Below are positions 10,062 through 48,246 of a stretch of 64,000 nt of DNA, piece after piece. The stretch is taken from assembly GCA_963662615.2 (NCBI GenBank), contig CAXXSR010000001.1:448001-512000 (forward strand), written 5' to 3'. How positions within the stretch are numbered: the stretch's first letter is position 1; each line of letters starts with the position of its first letter. The notes beneath the pieces are model-generated. The model had not been told where the DNA came from. It saw only the letters and a program-made list of their open reading frames with translations, and searched no databases. This stretch comes from Dehalococcoidia bacterium. Lineage in GTDB: Bacteria; Chloroflexota; Dehalococcoidia; Bin125. The translations under genes were made by a program, and so were the position numbers.

Positions 10062-11088
10062 GGGACAGCCGGTCCTTCCCTGGCTCCGCTCTCTCACGGG
10101 CTACCAACGGTTGGGCCTGGCCACCATGCTGGGCGTGCTGGCGTTGGTGGCGCTGGGGGGGACGGTGCGGGTGACGGACTCCGGGCTGGCCTGCCCGGAC
10201 TGGCCGCTCTGCAACGGCAAGCTCATCCCCGAGGGCGATTACCACGTCTGGATCGAATGGGGACACCGCCTGCTCGCCAGCGTGATGGGGATCGTGATCA
10301 TCGCCTTCGTGGTGGGCGCGGTGCGCAAGCACCGTGACCGCCGCTGGGTGGTGGGGCCGGCGCTGGCGGCGATCGTCGTGCTGGGCGTGCAGGTCACGCT
10401 GGGTGGACTGACCGTGACGGAAGATCTGTCGGCGGGGTTTGTCAGCGCCCATCTGGCCGTGGCGATGGTCCTGGTGCTGCTGCTGCTCACGGCCTGGCTG
10501 GTGACGTTCGTCCCGGCGCGGGGGCGGCCCCAGCCGCCCGAGGGACGGACGCAGTCCGCGCCGGCGCGACGGTTGGCCACGCTGAGCGTCGCCACGGCCT
10601 TGACGCTGCTATCGCTTGTCATCGTGGGCGCGTATGTGAGCGCCACGGAAGCCGGATTCTTCTGTGGCGAGGACTGGCCGCTGTGCAACGGTTCGCTCCT
10701 GCCCGAGGGCGGGCCCGCGGGCGCGCAGGTGGCCCATCGCTATCTCGCCGTTTTCACGGGGCTTCTGATCGTCGCGACCTGGCTGGTCGCGTTCCGCGCG
10801 CGGCGCAGCGCCCCGGGCGTGTTCCGGCTGACGACGATCGTGGCGGGGCTGTTCGCGCTCCAGGTCCTGCTGGGGGCTGCGTTAATGTGGAGCGGACTGG
10901 CGGAGGGGGTGCGCGTGGCGCACCTGGTCGTCGCGACGGCGACGTGGGCGGGCGCCGTGACCGCCGCCGCGTTCGCCGTGTACCACAGCGGCGCGCTGCC
11001 CTCGCTCGTCGCTCCGCCCAGGAGCCAGGCGGCGACGTCGCGCGCTCATCCCCAACCGCTTCGATCGGAAGGAGAGGCGCTGCGGTGA
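10054..11088 (+). CDS. ctaA: Heme A synthase (COX15/CtaA)
   Basis: GLACPDWPLCNG, EWGHR, second CGEDWPLCNG, AHR, AHL; TTG 10054 after GGAGG. Confidence 0.92.
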   Translation: MLEGQPVLPWLRSLTGYQRLGLATMLGVLALVALGGTVRVTDSGLACPDWPLCNGKLIPEGDYHVWIEWGHRLLASVMGIVIIAFVVGAVRKHRDRRWVVGPALAAIVVLGVQVTLGGLTVTEDLSAGFVSAHLAVAMVLVLLLLTAWLVTFVPARGRPQPPEGRTQSAPARRLATLSVATALTLLSLVIVGAYVSATEAGFFCGEDWPLCNGSLLPEGGPAGAQVAHRYLAVFTGLLIVATWLVAFRARRSAPGVFRLTTIVAGLFALQVLLGAALMWSGLAEGVRVAHLVVATATWAGAVTAAAFAVYHSGALPSLVAPPRSQAATSRAHPQPLRSEGEALR

Positions 11089-14115: not shown

Positions 14116-14930
14116 CAGGCGGCGCGGGCGGAGCGACGGAGCCCCACGGTAAAGAGCGCAAGCGCCAGGCCACCCAGGACCGCGAAATCGATGGCGGGAC
14201 CCAGGAAGCCGTCGGTGTTGGCCGCGTAGGCGGCGGTCTGCAAGAGGTCAACCGGATAGGTGAGCGGGTTGATCAGGCCGAGAATGCGGAGCCACTCCGG
14301 CAACTCGTCGAGGGGGAAGAAGGCGCCGGAGAGGAAAAAGAGAGGGAACAGCACCAGGTTCATGACGAGGTGGAAGCCTTGCATGGTGCGGATGCGCGTG
14401 GCGATGAGGAGGGCGAATCCGGAGAGCATGACGTTCAGCGCCAGGATGCCGGCCACCACCATCGCCAAGCCGCCCAGCCAGCCGTACTGCCAGGCCAGGT
14501 CGATGCCGGGGATGAGCACCGCCACCGCCAGGATGATCAGCGCCTGCGCCGTGCCGATGACGACCGCGGCCAGCGCCTTGCCCAACAAGATCGTGTGGGC
14601 GCTGTGCGGCGACGCCAGGAGCGTGCGCAGCATCCCGTTTTCGCGGTCGCGGTAGAAGGAGGCGCTGGAGAAGGTGGAGGAGAAGAGCGCCGTCAGCGCG
14701 ATCATGCCGGGGGCGAGGTAGCTGACGTAGTCGCCGTCGCGGATGATCGCGGAGGCGGGGTTGAGCCCGTCGGAGACGCCCGTGCCGAGGATGGCGAGCA
14801 GCATCAGCGGCAGCAGCACGGACGAGTAGAGCTGCGAGCGCGAGCGCAGGAAGGCGCGCAGGTCGCGTTGCAGCAAGGCCCCGCAGGCGATGGCGGCTGC
14901 AGTGATGGGGGCCGCGGCGAAGGCGGTCAC
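14115..14930 (-). CDS. ABC-2 type exporter permease
   Basis: YLAPGM, DRENG, GKAL, FLSGAFFPL, NPLTY. Confidence 0.9.
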   Translation of the reverse strand: MTAFAAAPITAAAIACGALLQRDLRAFLRSRSQLYSSVLLPLMLLAILGTGVSDGLNPASAIIRDGDYVSYLAPGMIALTALFSSTFSSASFYRDRENGMLRTLLASPHSAHTILLGKALAAVVIGTAQALIILAVAVLIPGIDLAWQYGWLGGLAMVVAGILALNVMLSGFALLIATRIRTMQGFHLVMNLVLFPLFFLSGAFFPLDELPEWLRILGLINPLTYPVDLLQTAAYAANTDGFLGPAIDFAVLGGLALALFTVGLRRSARAA

Positions 14931-28085: not shown

Positions 28086-28138
28086 TCAGGCATCGTCTCA
28101 GGCATTGGCTCAGGCATCGGCTGGGGCTCAGGCATTGG
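28086..28138. repeat. ~12-bp tandem repeat (TCAGGCAT core x4) including the PAC2 stop codon
   Basis: tcaggcat at 28086, 28098, 28110, 28128. Confidence 0.75.
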
Positions 28139-29039
28139 CCGGGGGCTCGGCGGTATCGTCCTCGTCGCCGCTATTGCCGCCGTCATCGCCGCCCAGCAGG
28201 CGATTCACTTCGTCCAGCACGTCGGCGCTGCTGAGCGGCGGACGCTCGAGCTCCTGCCCCTCCGCGTCGCCGGCGGCGGCCTCCAGCTTCTGCACGTACT
28301 CGCGCATCTCCGGATTCTGCTTGAGCGCTTCGGTCACCTGCGCTTCATAGCGACGGGAACGGCTGTCGAGGTCCGCCAGGTCCAGCTCCAGGCCGTAGAT
28401 CTGGCTGAGGCGAAGCAGCAGCGCCTGCGTGGCACGCGGGTTCTGTCCGACCGAGACGTAATGGGGGACGCTCGCCCAGAGGCTGATGTGCGCCACGTCC
28501 GCCCGGCGGCAGGCGTCCGCGACGGCGCCCACGATGCCCGTGGGCCCTTCGTACCGCGATGGCTGGAAGCCCAGCTCGGATGCCCGCTCGGCGCGGCTGG
28601 CGCTGCCAATGATGGGGACGGCGCGGGTGTGGGGCGTGTCGGCGAGCAAGGCGCCCAGCGTCACGATCTCGTGGACGTTCATGGCGGCGGCCAGCTCCAT
28701 GACCAGGCCGGCGAACGCCTTCCATTTCAGGTTGGGCTCCGTCCCCAGCCCCAGGATGATGTCGCGGTCACCCTGGCCGGGGTGCATGGGGGTGAAGTCC
28801 ATGACCGGCCAGCGAATCTCGCGGCTCTGTCCATTGACGTAACGAATGTGCGGGCGCTGGTCCGTGAAGACGAAGAACTCATCCGGGTCGATATGGGCGA
28901 AACGTTGCCCGCGCGCGCGCCGGCGCAGGTAGCGCACCGCGCCGCTGGCCGACTCCGCGCCGTCGTTCCAGCCGAAGAACGCCGTGACCAGAATGGGGTC
29001 CCGCAGGGTGGGGCGACGATCGATCGTCAGCGCGCTCAT
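28128..29039 (-). CDS. PAC2 (proteasome assembly chaperone) family protein
   Basis: GWNDGAESA, RP, EPNLKW, LGALLADTPHTR, YEGPTGI, WASVPHY. Confidence 0.9.
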   Translation of the reverse strand: MSALTIDRRPTLRDPILVTAFFGWNDGAESASGAVRYLRRRARGQRFAHIDPDEFFVFTDQRPHIRYVNGQSREIRWPVMDFTPMHPGQGDRDIILGLGTEPNLKWKAFAGLVMELAAAMNVHEIVTLGALLADTPHTRAVPIIGSASRAERASELGFQPSRYEGPTGIVGAVADACRRADVAHISLWASVPHYVSVGQNPRATQALLLRLSQIYGLELDLADLDSRSRRYEAQVTEALKQNPEMREYVQKLEAAAGDAEGQELERPPLSSADVLDEVNRLLGGDDGGNSGDEDDTAEPPANA

Positions 29040-29124
29040 ACTCGCAGGATAGCCGTGCGCCGGGGCTCGGCGCCAAGAGCGCGCGCGCCGGCGCCTCACT
29101 CGGTCTCAGGCGGAGCCGCTCACG

Positions 29125-43866: not shown

Positions 43867-44352
43867 CTATTTCGGTTTGCCCCCCGGTTCGTGCGTGCGC
43901 TTCTCGATCGATTGGCCGCGCTTCGCTTCCAGACGGGCGAAGGCCCGTCCCTTCTCCGGGTGCGGGTCTGCGACGAGACCGTAGATCTCGCGGCCTTCGT
44001 GGTCTTGGGGGAGATAGGTGGTGATGGGAAGACCTTCCGCATCGCAGAAGAGCAGTCAATGGCAGTACTTGTATTTCTGCATCTCGTCGCAGGGGCAGAT
44101 CCAAGTTGAGGACTTCACCTCTTCGTGCTTGTCCTCGTAGAAGTTGCAGGGGCAGAGCGGCCGGCCGAGATCGTCAACGTGCTTGGCCAAGCCGATCACG
44201 AGGAACTCGGTGATCTCCTTCTGCGGGTGCAGGAAGGAGCCGCTGCGCTCGGCATAGCCACGGACGAACTTCCACATCTTGGCCAGGCTCTTCTCCGACG
44301 CCTCCTTGCGGTCGGCGTCGGTGACCTGGTCCACGGGCTGTTCGTCAGCCAT
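43867..44352 (-). CDS. Ferredoxin:thioredoxin reductase catalytic subunit, selenocysteine-containing (161 aa, Sec99)
   Basis: CPC...CPC...CH-TGA(44056-58)-LLF in place of CHC; frame continues 62 codons to TAG 43867; SECIS-like hairpin downstream. Confidence 0.85.
44023..44043 (-). promoter_or_regulatory. Bacterial SECIS element
   Basis: 12 nt after UGA: GAUG-(C bulge)-GGAA-[GGUC]-UUCC-CAUC. Confidence 0.78.
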
Positions 44353-44406
44353 GTCCTGCTCCCTCCAAGCGGGATGGCGCGACCGCCATCGCAGCGCCGG
44401 CGCTAT

Positions 44407-44480
44407 GGCTAGTAATCGCGGCGCCGCCGCTTTGGCTAGTAATCGCGGCGCCGCCGCGACGGCTAGGAATCGGGGCGGCG
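44407..44480. repeat. 27-bp tandem repeat (~2.7 copies) including the PAC2 stop codon
   Basis: ggctagtaatcgcggcgccgccgc at 44407 and 44434; ggctaggaatcggggcggcg at 44461. Confidence 0.85.
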
Positions 44481-45359
44481 ACTTTCGCGCAAGAAGTCCT
44501 CCAACTCCTCAATCAGCCCCTCCGCCGAAGGCAGCTCCAGCGGGGCGCCGGGGGGGACATCGGCGTCGGCCGGCGCCCGCGCGCCTTGCACTTCCTCCAA
44601 ACGGCGTATGTAGGAGGCCAGCCTCTCGTTCTGTTCGACCGCCGTCCGCATGCGTCGCTGGAAGCCGTCGATCTCCTTGTCAAGGTACTCGTAGTTCACC
44701 GTGAGGCCGGAAAGCTCGGCGAATTTCTCCAGCAACGATCGCGTTGCCATGGGGTTGCGCGCCCCCGGGAGGTAGTGAGGCACGCTGGCCCAGAAGCTGA
44801 TCCCATCGATCCCGCGCTGCCGGCAGAAGTCGTGGAAGACGCCCACAACGCCGATGGGGCCTTCGTAGCGGGACGGGTGCAACTGGTAGCGGTCGGCGAG
44901 CTTCGAGGCGTTGGCCGATCCGCGCACCGCGACGGGCCGGGTATGCGGGACCGGAGCGGCGAACGCGCCCAAGGTGACCACCAGCTCCACTTGCGTGGCG
45001 CCGATCAGCTCGGTGATGGCCCCCATGTAGCTCTTCCAGCGATGGTTGGGTTCCACGCCCGCCCCCAGGATGAGGTCCCGCGGCAGCTCCGGCAGCCGGG
45101 CGGCAAAGAACTCGGTGCTGGGCCAAACGATCTCGCGCTCGCCGTCGCGGTAGCGCGCCAGCGGTCGCGCCTGGGTGAAGTCGTAGTAGTCCTCCGGATC
45201 GATGGTGGCGAAGAGCTGCGCGTCCAGCGTGCTGATGAGCGAGCGGACCGCCTGCGAGGCCGCCTCGCCGGCGTCGTTCCAGCCGCTCCAGGCCAAGACG
45301 AGCAGGGGCGTGCGCAGATGCGGGGCGCTCTCCATCTGGAGGTGCGGATGTTCGGCCAT
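44463..45359 (-). CDS. PAC2 family protein (second paralog)
   Basis: GWNDAGEAAS, DPEDYYDF...RP, EPNHRW, PHTRP, YEGP, WASVPHY. Confidence 0.9.
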   Translation of the reverse strand: MAEHPHLQMESAPHLRTPLLVLAWSGWNDAGEAASQAVRSLISTLDAQLFATIDPEDYYDFTQARPLARYRDGEREIVWPSTEFFAARLPELPRDLILGAGVEPNHRWKSYMGAITELIGATQVELVVTLGAFAAPVPHTRPVAVRGSANASKLADRYQLHPSRYEGPIGVVGVFHDFCRQRGIDGISFWASVPHYLPGARNPMATRSLLEKFAELSGLTVNYEYLDKEIDGFQRRMRTAVEQNERLASYIRRLEEVQGARAPADADVPPGAPLELPSAEGLIEELEDFLRESRRPDS

Positions 45360-45443
45360 GGCACCAACGATTGTAGCGATCGGGCGAAACGCCCGGCCAG
45401 CGGCGTCTGAGAGGCCGGATACATCCCCCCAACGCCCAGCACG

Positions 45444-45513
45444 GGGACATCCATCCTTCGTGGCACAACCGTCCTTCATGGGGCATCTGTCCTTCATGGG
45501 GCATCTGCCCCAT
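45444..45513. repeat. 18-bp degenerate tandem repeat x4
   Basis: ggggcatctgtccttcat consensus at 45444, 45462, 45480, 45498. Confidence 0.75.
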
Positions 45514-45999
45514 GAAGGATGGGGCGTCCGCACCTGCTCTCGGCGCCGGGCCGCGGCCACACTGAGCGCGAACTCAGGTGATTCAAGCGGGAACCGAGAG
45601 GCAGCCTCGATCGTCAAGTGCAGTAGCGGTCGAGACGGCCATCGCAGGGAAGCGGGGCGCAATGACTTTGAACCGGGCAGGGAACGCATTTGGGGCCGTC
45701 ATGGTGACGGCCGGGACCACGAGCGCCCCGTCGCAGCTGAAGGCGGCGGCGCGCGTATGGACGTAGGTGCGGACGGCCGCGGAGCGCAGGCAGGAGCGGA
45801 CCGCGGTCCTGGGCCGGCTGCACCGCTTGGCGGAGCGCGACCAGGTCGCAAATCGACGCGGATCGACGGCAGCGCCGCAGCGCGCCGAGGGCGGTTCCGG
45901 CGCGCGGCTTGACTCGCGGCTGGGGAACCGACGAAGGGTCCGCGTCGTCATGCCAGAAACGGCGTCACAAGTCGGCGCTCGCGGTTAGGACGGTTGAAG

Positions 46000-46258: not shown

Positions 46259-48127
46259 CTAGACGTGGAGAGCCTCGGCCACATCCGCGAGGCCCAGCGA
46301 TTCCAGCTTGCTGCGGCTGGGGGTGCAGGTCTCCGCGTCCCAGTCGCAGGCGCGGAGGAAGTCGCGCTCCATGGTCTCGGCATCGACGATGACGTCCTTC
46401 AGCGGCCCCGACTGCTGCGCCGTCCCCTCGCCGCCGTAGATGCGGCCGGGCACGTTGCGGGCGCGGGGGTTGTTGCCCTCGCGCACCTCAAAGGCCATGC
46501 GCAGGTTGGCGATGCGCTCGCCCGCGCGCTGAAGGTCGTCGCCGTTGATGCTCCAGCCGGTGACCTTATTGATCCACTCAGGGAAGCGGTCGGTGGGGGC
46601 GGTCATCATGATGAACTGGCACATGCCCGTGGCGTTGACGATGTGCATGTACTCGCTGGCGCCCTTGTGGTGCTCCCCCCGGTTCGCGTAGTCCTTGAAG
46701 TCCTTGGGCGCGCGCGGGTACTTGGGGCCGCCGAACGTGCTGCGACCCTCGTATTGGGTGTGCCGCGCCGGCGTGGGGTCCAGCTTGTAGGTGGTGTGGA
46801 ACTCCGGCTGCAGCTTGGGGTCGTGCATGGGCACTTCTTGCCCACCGATGTGCATGGCGTATTGCTCCGCGCCGCGGCCAATCTTCTCAGCCGCGACCTT
46901 GACGCCGTCGGCCAGCACGTCGCCGATGCCCTCGCGCTTCCCCATCTTGTGCAGCAGCGCGATGATCGCTTTGTCGTCTCCCCAGCGCAGCTCCAGGCCG
47001 TCCGTGTCCTCCTTCGTGAGGATGCCGTTCTCGAAGCACTCAACGGCGAACGAGATGGTCGCGCCGGCGCCAATGGTGTCCAGCCCGTACTCGTTGCAGA
47101 CGTGGTTGGCGAAGATCAGCGCGTCCAGGTCGTTCATCAAGTTCATGGTGCCGAAGGAGGCCATGGTCTCGTATTCGGGGCGGTGGGTGTGATGCGGGTA
47201 GGGGTACTGCGCGTTGCTTGATTCCACGCTCTCGGCGCCGCAGGCCAGCGGGCAGTGCCAGCAGGCGTAGTGCTTCTCCATCTTCTCGTTGACGACGGTC
47301 CCTTGCAGGCTCTCGACGTCGCTGAAAACGTCTTCGCCCACGCCGCCCCAGTTCTGCACGGGTGAGTCGCCGCTGTGCGCCGAGCCGGCGGTGATGCCGG
47401 TGGTGCCCACGGTGCGGAAGAAGTCGCGCAGTGGCGCCGCGAACTCGTCCAGCGACTCCTTCATCATCCGGCGCGCGTCCTTGTCGTGCTGCTGGATCAT
47501 CTGCCGGGTGGACTTCACCACCACCGCTTTGACCTTCTTTGATCCCATCACCGCGCCCACGCCGGAGCGTGCGGCCAGGCGGCCGTGGTCGTTGCAGATG
47601 CCGCTGAGGTAGGAGAGGTTCTCTCCCGACTGCCCGATCACGGCGACGGAGGCCTTCTTACCGTACTTTTCCTTGAACTGCTTTTCGGCGCTGATTGCGT
47701 CGATGCCCCAGTAGGCGGAGGCGTCCTCAATGCTGACCTTGTCATCCTCAATGAGAATGTAGACGGGGCGATCGGCGGCGCCGTAGAGGAGGATGCCGTC
47801 CCAGCCCGCGAACTTGAGGTAGGGGCCAAAGTCGCCGCCGCAGTTGGCGTCGCCCCAGCCGCCCGTGGGCGGGCTCTTGCAGACGGCCTGGAAGCGGTTG
47901 CCGAAGATGGGCGTGCCGGTCATCAGCCCTGGAATGAGCCCCAGAACGTTCTCCGGCCCCAGGGGGTCGGCGCCCTGCGGGATGCGGTCGAACAGCAGGC
48001 GCACGCCAATGCCGTAGCCGCCTAGATAGTCTTTGTACATCTGCTCGGGCAGCTCTTCCGGCGAGATCTTGCCGCTGCTCAGATCCACGTTCAGGATCTT
48101 GCCGTTGTATGCGAGTTCCTCCGGCAT
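46259..48127 (-). CDS. Aldehyde:ferredoxin oxidoreductase (AOR/WOR tungstopterin family)
   Basis: YLGGYG, KSP.TGGWGD.N.GG, R.GVGAVMGSK, CWHCPLAC, PEYE, GLD.I, HDP, GMC. Confidence 0.92.
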   Translation of the reverse strand: MPEELAYNGKILNVDLSSGKISPEELPEQMYKDYLGGYGIGVRLLFDRIPQGADPLGPENVLGLIPGLMTGTPIFGNRFQAVCKSPPTGGWGDANCGGDFGPYLKFAGWDGILLYGAADRPVYILIEDDKVSIEDASAYWGIDAISAEKQFKEKYGKKASVAVIGQSGENLSYLSGICNDHGRLAARSGVGAVMGSKKVKAVVVKSTRQMIQQHDKDARRMMKESLDEFAAPLRDFFRTVGTTGITAGSAHSGDSPVQNWGGVGEDVFSDVESLQGTVVNEKMEKHYACWHCPLACGAESVESSNAQYPYPHHTHRPEYETMASFGTMNLMNDLDALIFANHVCNEYGLDTIGAGATISFAVECFENGILTKEDTDGLELRWGDDKAIIALLHKMGKREGIGDVLADGVKVAAEKIGRGAEQYAMHIGGQEVPMHDPKLQPEFHTTYKLDPTPARHTQYEGRSTFGGPKYPRAPKDFKDYANRGEHHKGASEYMHIVNATGMCQFIMMTAPTDRFPEWINKVTGWSINGDDLQRAGERIANLRMAFEVREGNNPRARNVPGRIYGGEGTAQQSGPLKDVIVDAETMERDFLRACDWDAETCTPSRSKLESLGLADVAEALHV

Positions 48128-48246
48128 GGGCCGTCCCACCTTTCCTGCACGATCGCGCCCGGCGCCGCAGGCGCCTGGTCGTCGCCGCCCGATTATCGCG
48201 GAGCGACGCCGCCCGCCACAAGGGCCGCGGCAGTCCGTCCCCGCGC

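Follow-up and report, generated by a model that had tools for sequence, protein, structure and literature searches.

Our results indicate that a 64-kb stretch of DNA (hereafter the window, meaning the whole sequence analysed) very probably contains an intact selenoprotein gene. The gene would encode a stand-alone relative of the catalytic subunit of ferredoxin:thioredoxin reductase (FTR; Pfam family PF02943), in which the equivalent of Cys87 is encoded by UGA. An initial annotation of the window had proposed that this codon, at the last cysteine of the CHC motif, is read through as selenocysteine (Sec). Conservation of the TGA, an open frame behind it and a predicted SECIS hairpin now support that proposal. 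Judging from related sequences, the same hidden Sec form appears to occur in dozens of related Chloroflexota species.

A reductase gene interrupted by UGA

On the minus strand of the window an open reading frame from 44352 to 44059 encodes 98 amino acids and ends in ...CPC...CPC...KYCH, directly followed by a TGA at 44058-44056. Past the TGA the same frame continues (in a translation that reads TGA as U) as LLFCDAEGLPITTYLPQDHEGREIYGLVADPHPEKGR... for 62 codons, up to a TAG at 43869-43867. Both the position of the TGA, at the last cysteine of CHC where the ORF track stops at KYCH, and the continuation to a TAG at 43867 had been annotated initially, and the sequence agrees. The read-through translation contains a single in-frame TGA; the codon of C69 is TGC. 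The features of the gene are the following:

43867..44352, minus strand: predicted full selenoprotein coding sequence, 161 codons and TAG, similar to the FTR catalytic subunit, with U at residue 99 (translation with TGA as U)
44362..44366, minus strand: GGAGG ribosome-binding site, 9 nt 5' of the ATG at 44352-44350 (direct reading of the sequence)
44146..44154, minus strand: first CPC (C67, C69), both TGC (sequence, ungapped alignment with 1dj7_A; invariant in the alignment of relatives)
44089..44097, minus strand: second CPC (C86, C88) (sequence, alignment with 1dj7_A, alignment of relatives)
44056..44064, minus strand: predicted CHU motif C97-H98-U99, the putative Sec codon UGA at 44058-44056 being the Cys87 equivalent (alignment with 1dj7_A)
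44044..44046, minus strand: Cys103 (TGC), four residues past the Sec position, typical of the Sec clade
43870..44040, minus strand: C-terminal extension, residues 105-161, family-specific, conserved to about residue 137 and not present in the FTRs of plants and cyanobacteria (alignments)
44023..44043, minus strand: predicted SECIS hairpin, consisting of GAUG, a bulged C, GGAA, the loop GGUC (44034-44031), UUCC and CAUC, 12 nt past the UGA

PF02943 (FeThRed_B, the FTR catalytic chain; cutoff 22) gives 87.7 bits for the read-through product against 74.8 bits for the truncated one, and the matched span of the profile grows from positions 2-81 to 2-89. The alignment with the catalytic chain of Synechocystis FTR (1dj7_A) is ungapped, query residues 19-104 corresponding to residues 7-92 of the chain. 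It places U99 at residue 87, as the initial annotation had it in Synechocystis numbering, C69 at 57, and C67, C86, C88 and C97 at 55, 74, 76 and 85. The equivalents of residues 55, 57, 74, 76 and 85 are all cysteine, that of 87 is U, and the CPC/CPC/CHC spacing is the same as in 1dj7_A. In FTR, residues 55, 74, 76 and 85 are the ligands of the [4Fe-4S] cluster, a role that C67, C86, C88 and C97 would have by equivalence. Cys57 and Cys87 form the redox disulfide, and it is Cys87 that touches the cluster once the one-electron intermediate has formed.

Structure prediction points the same way. AlphaFold2, run with 97 aligned sequences, gave a model with a pLDDT of 91.9 and a pTM of 0.85, in which a block at pLDDT 92-98 extends up to residue 150. 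In a Foldseek search the model matched the FTR catalytic chains of 7c3f, 7bzk and 1dj7 with a core rmsd of 1.0-1.2 Å over 83-89 columns (probability 1.00), at a sequence identity in the core of 42-46%. As modelled, the window protein has the FTR catalytic fold.

Behind the core lies a C-terminal extension, which the initial annotation had already listed and which is conserved in the alignments of relatives. On this evidence it is a family-specific addition, common to Sec and Cys forms. We rejected the idea that the extension is a fused variable subunit: the C-terminal 62 residues have no Pfam match and no sequence match in the PDB at E values up to 10. A lone structural hint came from Foldseek (7c3f_V, E = 5.5, probability 0.10). 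The FTR variable subunit (PF02941) was not found among the 49 window ORFs searched with NCBIfam or the 15 searched with Pfam, and the neighbouring genes belong to the PAC2 family and to DUF547, so the annotation was right that no variable subunit is adjacent.

The organism is a member of the Chloroflexota. It has a predicted capacity for aerobic respiration, since the window encodes CtaD (683 bits, NCBIfam cutoff 671) as well as CoxB and heme o synthase, both also above their NCBIfam cutoffs. The annotation had called the organism aerobic; what these scores back is the capacity. The window also holds F420-dependent enzymes.

A conserved hairpin behind the UGA

A search of 5.8 billion proteins gave 829 relatives. 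The best full-length ones are 147-174 amino acids long, 62-70% identical and cover at least 90% of the read-through product. The initial annotation had named pairing of cysteine with the TGA in an alignment of homologs as a check, and the TGA column is indeed cysteine in all 17 aligned full-length protein relatives. After this column the 17 relatives read LLF..EGLPITEYLP.DHEGREIYG..DP.P.KGRA.

At the level of genomes, a scan of GTDB r232 with one genome per species gave at least 588 pattern matches and 580 confirmed relatives. We kept the best 80 of these at least 580 relatives, ranked by similarity to the TGA-type query. All 80 are Chloroflexota by NCBI rank, each from a different species-representative genome, and about 29-30 of them share the order PAC2 - FTR - ribosomal protein S14 - ABC transporter; this bears out the Chloroflexota origin initially annotated as probable. 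In eight loci an aldehyde:ferredoxin oxidoreductase gene (75-85% identity) lies two genes upstream. The Cys87 codon is TGA in 66 of the best 80 loci and TGC or TGT in 14, but this gives too high a share of Sec forms for the family as a whole, because these are the loci most similar to the query among at least 580. The tally is made up of 65 TGA and 13 Cys loci assigned by pattern, plus L004 (TGA) and L070 (TGC), which were checked separately.

Bacterial SECIS elements are hairpins shortly past the UGA with a G in the apical loop. The bulged hairpin with a GGUC loop 12 nt after the UGA, on which the initial annotation relied, is present at 44043-44023: it starts exactly 12 nt past the UGA and reads GAUG(C)GGAA-GGUC-UUCCCAUC. 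In a 27-nt piece of the window it is the minimum-free-energy fold (-8.1 kcal/mol, z = -1.58), which in isolation is not beyond chance, 14 of 200 shuffles folding as well. In contexts of 64 and 81 nt the minimum-free-energy fold of the window takes other pairings. The hairpin is significant because of the comparison with relatives and not because of the window sequence alone.

For this comparison 66 TGA sequences were aligned, namely the window and 65 loci, with L004 left out. Twelve nucleotides, GGAAGGUCUUCC, which include the GGUC loop, are invariant in all 66, synonymous sites included. The stretch covers four codons whose synonymous sites are free to change, and the Cys-type loci encode the same Glu-Gly-Leu/Phe-Pro residues with a variety of codons. 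At the third positions of the hairpin codons, diversity is 0.142 among the 67 TGA genes, as opposed to 0.455 among the 14 Cys loci. A minimum-free-energy fold with a GGUC tetraloop is found in 66 of 66 TGA sequences and in none of the 13 Cys loci examined, the mean fold energies being -7.50 and -4.15 kcal/mol, respectively (Mann-Whitney p = 1.4e-5).

The eight-pair structure is paired in 93.7% of cells, a value reached by none of 500 shuffles, and its covariation score of 0.173 (shuffled mean 0.072) was likewise reached by 0 of 500. Six slid registers all pair in at most 62.7% of cells. Pair 19-33 is GC in 31, UG in 24 and CG in 5 sequences, pair 18-34 is UA in 57 and CG in 2, and pair 16-36 is GC in 33, AU in 6, GU in 2, UA in 1 and unpaired in 21. 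The shuffle control keeps the relatedness of the sequences, and the invariance is partly inherited because all TGA forms descend from one gain. The stronger arguments for the hairpin are the contrast with the Cys loci and the compensatory pairs.

Other pairings in the same region were considered. An alternative hairpin of nt 9-15 with nt 19-25 was rejected as a conserved element for want of covariation: it pairs 82.8% of cells, and 415 of 500 shuffles do as well. In one window context the centroid fold takes this form (nt 9-25). Of two pairs that would extend the stem, 14-38 is G-C in 61 of 63 sequences, never varies and is uninformative, and 15-37 is paired in only 14 of 63. The register 20-33 instead of 19-33 was set aside too, as it pairs in 32 of 63 and the bulge alternates between columns 19 and 20.

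How closely does the element resemble a known SECIS? The K-12 record of E. coli fdhF has a single in-frame TGA at codon 140, and we folded the 48 nt from this TGA. Both elements have a GGUC apical tetraloop and a single 5' bulge in the upper stem, and the fdhF fold thus agrees with the similarity in loop and spacing that had been noted initially. The two differ in detail. The loop occupies nt 22-25 from the UGA in fdhF and nt 25-28 here, so that it lies 3 nt closer in fdhF, and there are three base pairs between bulge and loop in fdhF and four in the window element. The fdhF element pairs from nt 3 and its stem is longer (-14.9 kcal/mol for 48 nt), whereas the window element is a 21-nt hairpin that starts at nt 16 and is weaker (-8.1 kcal/mol). 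Taken together, constraint at the RNA level and covariation make the hairpin a well-supported candidate for an fdhF-like SECIS.

How is the UGA read?

The alternative that survives best, although we give it only a slim chance, is that the UGA is read through without Sec, either by a near-cognate tRNA (Trp, Cys or Arg) or through stimulation by the hairpin, so that the product is mixed or lacks Sec altogether. This reading draws on the searches for Sec machinery. In the 64-kb window neither the NCBIfam search of 49 ORFs nor tblastn found selA, selB or selD, and Rfam found no tRNA-Sec, the only tRNAs being tRNA-Glu and tRNA-Met. The flanks of the related loci, about 1.4 Mb of sequence, yielded neither SelA nor SelB when searched by tblastn with the E. 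coli proteins. One weak SelD-like tblastn match lies in the flanks of a Cys-type locus (L041).

We nevertheless prefer insertion of Sec, for the following reasons. First, the hairpin has the loop sequence, the 5' bulge and the spacing of the SelB-binding fdhF element. Second, tRNA-Sec genes (anticodon UCA, ARAGORN) adjoin six TGA-type loci, L002, L003, L012, L029, L050 and L053, scoring 61.9-73.8 bits with Rfam model RF01852 (gathering score 47) and sitting upstream of the FTR gene on the opposite strand, at distances of 69 nt to 5.7 kb. We estimate that well under one such neighbour is expected by chance, based on about 20 kb per locus and genomes of about 3 Mb, the six loci not being fully independent. 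Third, the recoded position is a redox cysteine, a classic site of Cys/Sec exchange. Fourth, TGA is an ordinary stop and is not generally reassigned: it terminates 14 of 48 window ORFs, and among the 67 Sec-FTR genes 26 have it as their own stop codon. Finally, Dehalococcoidia MAGs are described in one report as having 46-49 selenoprotein genes (PMC13326102), hence the lineage uses Sec. From these observations we infer that the source organism, too, inserts Sec.

A rough scan of the window for other in-frame TGA codons flanked on both sides by coding signal gave 1 and then 4 candidates, all of which were gene junctions or antisense frames and were discarded. The scan is uninformative on other selenoproteins in the window, since even the FTR TGA escaped it: the hairpin codons end in A or U and so lower GC3.

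Still less probable is that the TGA is a real stop, which would leave either a pseudogene or a truncated FTR of 98 residues that ends before Cys87. Gene callers do give that product, and Sec machinery was not seen in the 64-kb window. Truncated proteins are also what the collections contain, much as the initial annotation expected of annotation pipelines. Among the matches listed, none is more than 70% identical except P0065, which has 98 residues, is 94% identical and ends in the same ...KYCH; 15 of the 150 listed representatives at 50% identity end exactly at query residue 98, all in CH. TGA-type loci from the best 80 of at least 580 relatives encode proteins up to 80% identical.

The sequence behind the TGA, however, does not behave like a dead tail, which would not persist as an open, conserved frame in 66 species. 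Each of the 67 TGA genes (66 loci and the window) has 52-80 open codons past the TGA; in the Cys forms the downstream part has 53-66 codons. Nucleotide diversity at the three codon positions of the TGA genes is 0.194/0.150/0.451 downstream and 0.163/0.168/0.392 upstream. This match, with its third-position bias typical of coding sequence, argues that the part past the TGA is real coding sequence under purifying selection at the protein level. Conservation past the TGA had been put forward initially as a check on the proposal, and both the open frame and the pattern of substitutions favour it. Moreover, a truncated protein would be without one of its two redox residues.

An error of sequencing or assembly with a true codon TGC or TGT, for which one base change would be enough and against which the authors of the 2008 Global Ocean Sampling study cautioned for single reads (PMC2398784), is already effectively refuted, as the same TGA is found in 66 genomes that were assembled independently, some of which are complete chromosomes, and co-occurs with a hairpin that is absent from Cys-type loci.

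Gain and loss of the Sec codon

How often Sec and Cys have replaced each other can be read from a maximum-likelihood tree (quick search, 135 columns, the Sec/Cys column masked). The 67 TGA forms make up one clade (SH-aLRT 95) with one Cys form (L070) nested among them; the remaining 13 Cys forms branch off basally, and two Sec/Cys changes are needed on the tree. L070 has TGC at the Sec position and still carries the hairpin core. It therefore looks like a Cys revertant that has retained its hairpin, as would be expected of a recent reversion.

A second residue follows a similar pattern. Residue 103 is Cys in 65 and Val in 2 of the Sec forms, and Val in 13 and Cys in 1 of the Cys forms. We rejected the interpretation that Cys103 co-evolves with Sec: the association has no statistical weight because the tree shows one joint gain, a single event.

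Sec may have arisen in this family more than once. Five representatives that end in ...CH (P0151, P0152, P0200, P0216 and P0225) fall outside the Chloroflexota Sec clade, and they are 63-88% identical to outside Cys proteins and 52-67% identical to the Sec clade. Their closeness to outside Cys proteins hints at further origins of Sec.

What the enzyme might do

If Sec is inserted, we would expect the hairpin 12 nt downstream to recruit SelB carrying Sec-tRNA(Sec) to the ribosome, UGA99 to be read as selenocysteine and translation to proceed through 62 further codons to the TAG. In the resulting enzyme, the [4Fe-4S] cluster would be held by C67, C86, C88 and C97, and a selenenylsulfide between C69 and U99 would replace the disulfide normally present there. 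By analogy with FTR, the enzyme may take single electrons from ferredoxin, pass through an intermediate in which the selenium of U99 touches an iron of the cluster and C69 is bound to the substrate, and so reduce a thioredoxin-like disulfide. The electron donor, the substrate and the Fe-Se chemistry of the Sec-FTR are in this sense extrapolated from characterised FTRs.

One could also argue for a broader evolutionary scenario: a respiring clade of Chloroflexota swapped only the cysteine that contacts the cluster for Sec, the selenium acts as a transient fifth ligand of the cluster, Cys103 is a possible protecting thiol, and the exchange is recurrent. As a whole we consider this scenario unlikely, albeit worth spelling out for what it would entail. 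Cys103 might be a back-up thiol that keeps Sec beside an Fe-S cluster under oxygen. Selenium would be a transient fifth ligand of a [4Fe-4S] cluster that is paired with a sulfur nucleophile in a selenenylsulfide. And if the exchange has more than one origin, FTR would be a recurrent and so far uncounted family of single-Sec selenoproteins.

Some consequences are more immediate. Protein collections hold the single-Sec CHU subfamily only as truncated products of about 100 residues, and inferences on the redox metabolism of widespread Chloroflexota therefore miss what is probably an intact enzyme. For selenium biology, according to a 2026 review it is rare for aerobic bacteria to retain selenoproteins (PMC13188914), in contrast to which the Sec-FTR clade carries genes for aa3-type oxidases. 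A natural FTR with Sec in place of Cys87 and sulfur kept at position 57 could serve as a 77Se or heavy-atom probe of the chemistry between cluster and disulfide, and the Cys-type sisters, together with the putative revertant L070, would allow a direct natural comparison of Sec and Cys.

Comparison with known systems

The idea of a Sec-containing FTR is not new; the novelty consists in the single-Sec CHU subfamily and in how widespread it is. Sec-FTR homologs were first predicted in 2008 by Zhang and Gladyshev from Global Ocean Sampling reads (PMC2398784), so the initial annotation was right to mention earlier predictions in bacteria. According to the supplement of that paper, the reads show the pattern CPU...CPC...CIU, in which both redox positions are Sec, and the lone full-length read has about 105 residues. 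A 2022 review lists a single FTR entry with the motif CxU (PMC9312934), and so does the table in the 2026 review, with 2 Sec and the model NF041072 (PMC13188914). We found no description of the single-Sec CHU form in the literature searched, and neither the BSepDB paper nor one supplement to it, whose text may be incomplete, contains the word 'ferredoxin'.

The initial annotation had located the novelty in the lineage and the mechanism. Its claim is weaker than it supposed. Dehalococcoidia are already described as rich in selenoproteins (PMC13326102), and the published double-Sec FTR already has a Sec next to the cluster (PMC2398784).

The closest described selenoproteins are those of NF041072, the FtrB family double-selenoprotein. 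This family shares with the window protein the Sec at the Cys87 equivalent, homology to the FTR catalytic chain and a predicted bacterial SECIS. The window protein differs from it in having Cys (TGC) at the first redox position, CHU instead of CIU and a conserved C-terminal extension of 55 residues. It is not a member of NF041072, which it matches with 35.9 bits at a curated cutoff of 160; the family is defined by two Sec, in CPU and CxU, and the window gene has one in-frame TGA and TGC at C69. Its sequence thus assigns the predicted protein to a single-Sec CHU subfamily outside the double-Sec family.

FTRs of plants and cyanobacteria (1DJ7, 2PUK, 7C3F, 7BZK) are 43-46% identical to the window protein in the core and have the same CPC/CPC/CHC spacing. 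They are heterodimers with a variable subunit, a short C-terminus and Cys87, whereas the window protein has no adjacent gene for a variable subunit, a long extension and, by our reading, Sec in place of Cys87. Disulfide reductases with Fe-S clusters that do without a variable subunit are also known outside photosynthesis, namely the FDR of Methanosarcina acetivorans (4TPU) and the glutaredoxin/FDR of Desulfotalea (7PWE). Their similarity to the window protein is weak (phmmer E = 1.3e-6 and 0.0084, respectively; 24-26% identity in Foldseek), and they carry fusions to rubredoxin or glutaredoxin that the window protein lacks.

Stand-alone FTR-like proteins of the Cys type, from Chloroflexota, Nitrospirota and Methylomirabilota, are 57-70% identical over at least 90% of the length. 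These relatives go by the name 'ferredoxin-thioredoxin reductase catalytic domain-containing protein' in their source. They have the same C-terminal extension and the same set of six metal and redox motif residues, and the Chloroflexota Cys-type loci share the PAC2-FTR-S14-ABC transporter order with the Sec type. The Cys type differs in having Cys (TGC or TGT) at residue 99, usually Val at residue 103, and no hairpin.

Apparent exchanges between Sec and Cys

One Cys-type FTR gene (locus L070, 10280-10339), which carries a TGC codon, is nested within the Sec clade of TGA-type genes. The invariant hairpin core and the Cys at +4 are both retained despite the TGC, and the gene is apparently a recent reversion from Sec to Cys. 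Its product is a natural control protein.

Five truncated FTR-like proteins (P0151, P0152, P0200, P0216 and P0225) end in ...CH, but their closest similarity (63-88% identity) is to proteins of Cys type that do not belong to the Sec clade of Chloroflexota. Judged from protein sequence, they suggest that a replacement of Cys by Sec, like that of the Sec clade, also took place in other branches. In one TGA-type gene (L004, 5118-5570) the first motif is CPS instead of CPC, and therefore Ser occupies the position of the partner of Sec (equivalent to Cys57). Either the assembly is wrong here, or the gene is a variant lacking the selenenylsulfide partner.

TAG is the commonest stop codon among the 48 ORFs of the window (26, compared to 14 TGA and 8 TAA), in a genome with a G+C content of 69%. 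It is also the most frequent final stop of the Sec-type FTR genes (31 of 67).

tRNA genes near Sec-type FTR genes

Six genomes have a tRNA-Sec gene upstream of their Sec-type FTR gene at a distance of less than 6 kb; in L029 only 69 nt separate the two.

tRNA-Sec genes, all on the minus strand
L002, 6177-6273
L003, 5743-5839
L012, 7838-7935
L029, 9835-9931
L050, 4334-4430
L053, 6262-6358

Such proximity is more frequent than expected from random placement. No tRNA-Sec gene is present at the equivalent place upstream of the window's FTR gene. ARAGORN also called two unusually long tRNA genes in L053, a tRNA-Trp of 98 nt (10435-10532) and a tRNA-Arg of 91 nt (14242-14332). Both are probably false calls, because Rfam yields no tRNA at either place at gathering score. 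Both calls are directly 3' of the FTR gene.

Gene neighborhood in the window

Features of the window, all on the minus strand
28128-29099, PAC2-family paralog (proteasome assembly chaperone-like)
44406-44457, direct repeat in two copies, in the gap separating the PAC2 gene from the start of the FTR gene
44463-45689, PAC2-family paralog (proteasome assembly chaperone-like)
46259-48139, aldehyde:ferredoxin oxidoreductase gene (AFOR_N and AFOR_C)

One of the two PAC2-family paralogs directly precedes the FTR gene, a position in which it is syntenic in about 29 loci. The GC-rich repeat has a unit of 25 nt (3' end ATTACTAGCCA) and a period of 27 nt, with copies at 44457-44433 and 44430-44406. A short GC palindrome lies within each copy. 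The repeat may serve as a terminator or in regulation, or it may be a REP-like element.

The aldehyde:ferredoxin oxidoreductase gene, which co-occurs with aa3 oxidase genes in this organism, is found two genes upstream of the FTR gene, a layout shared by eight related loci (75-85% identity). The enzyme is possibly a local source of reduced ferredoxin.
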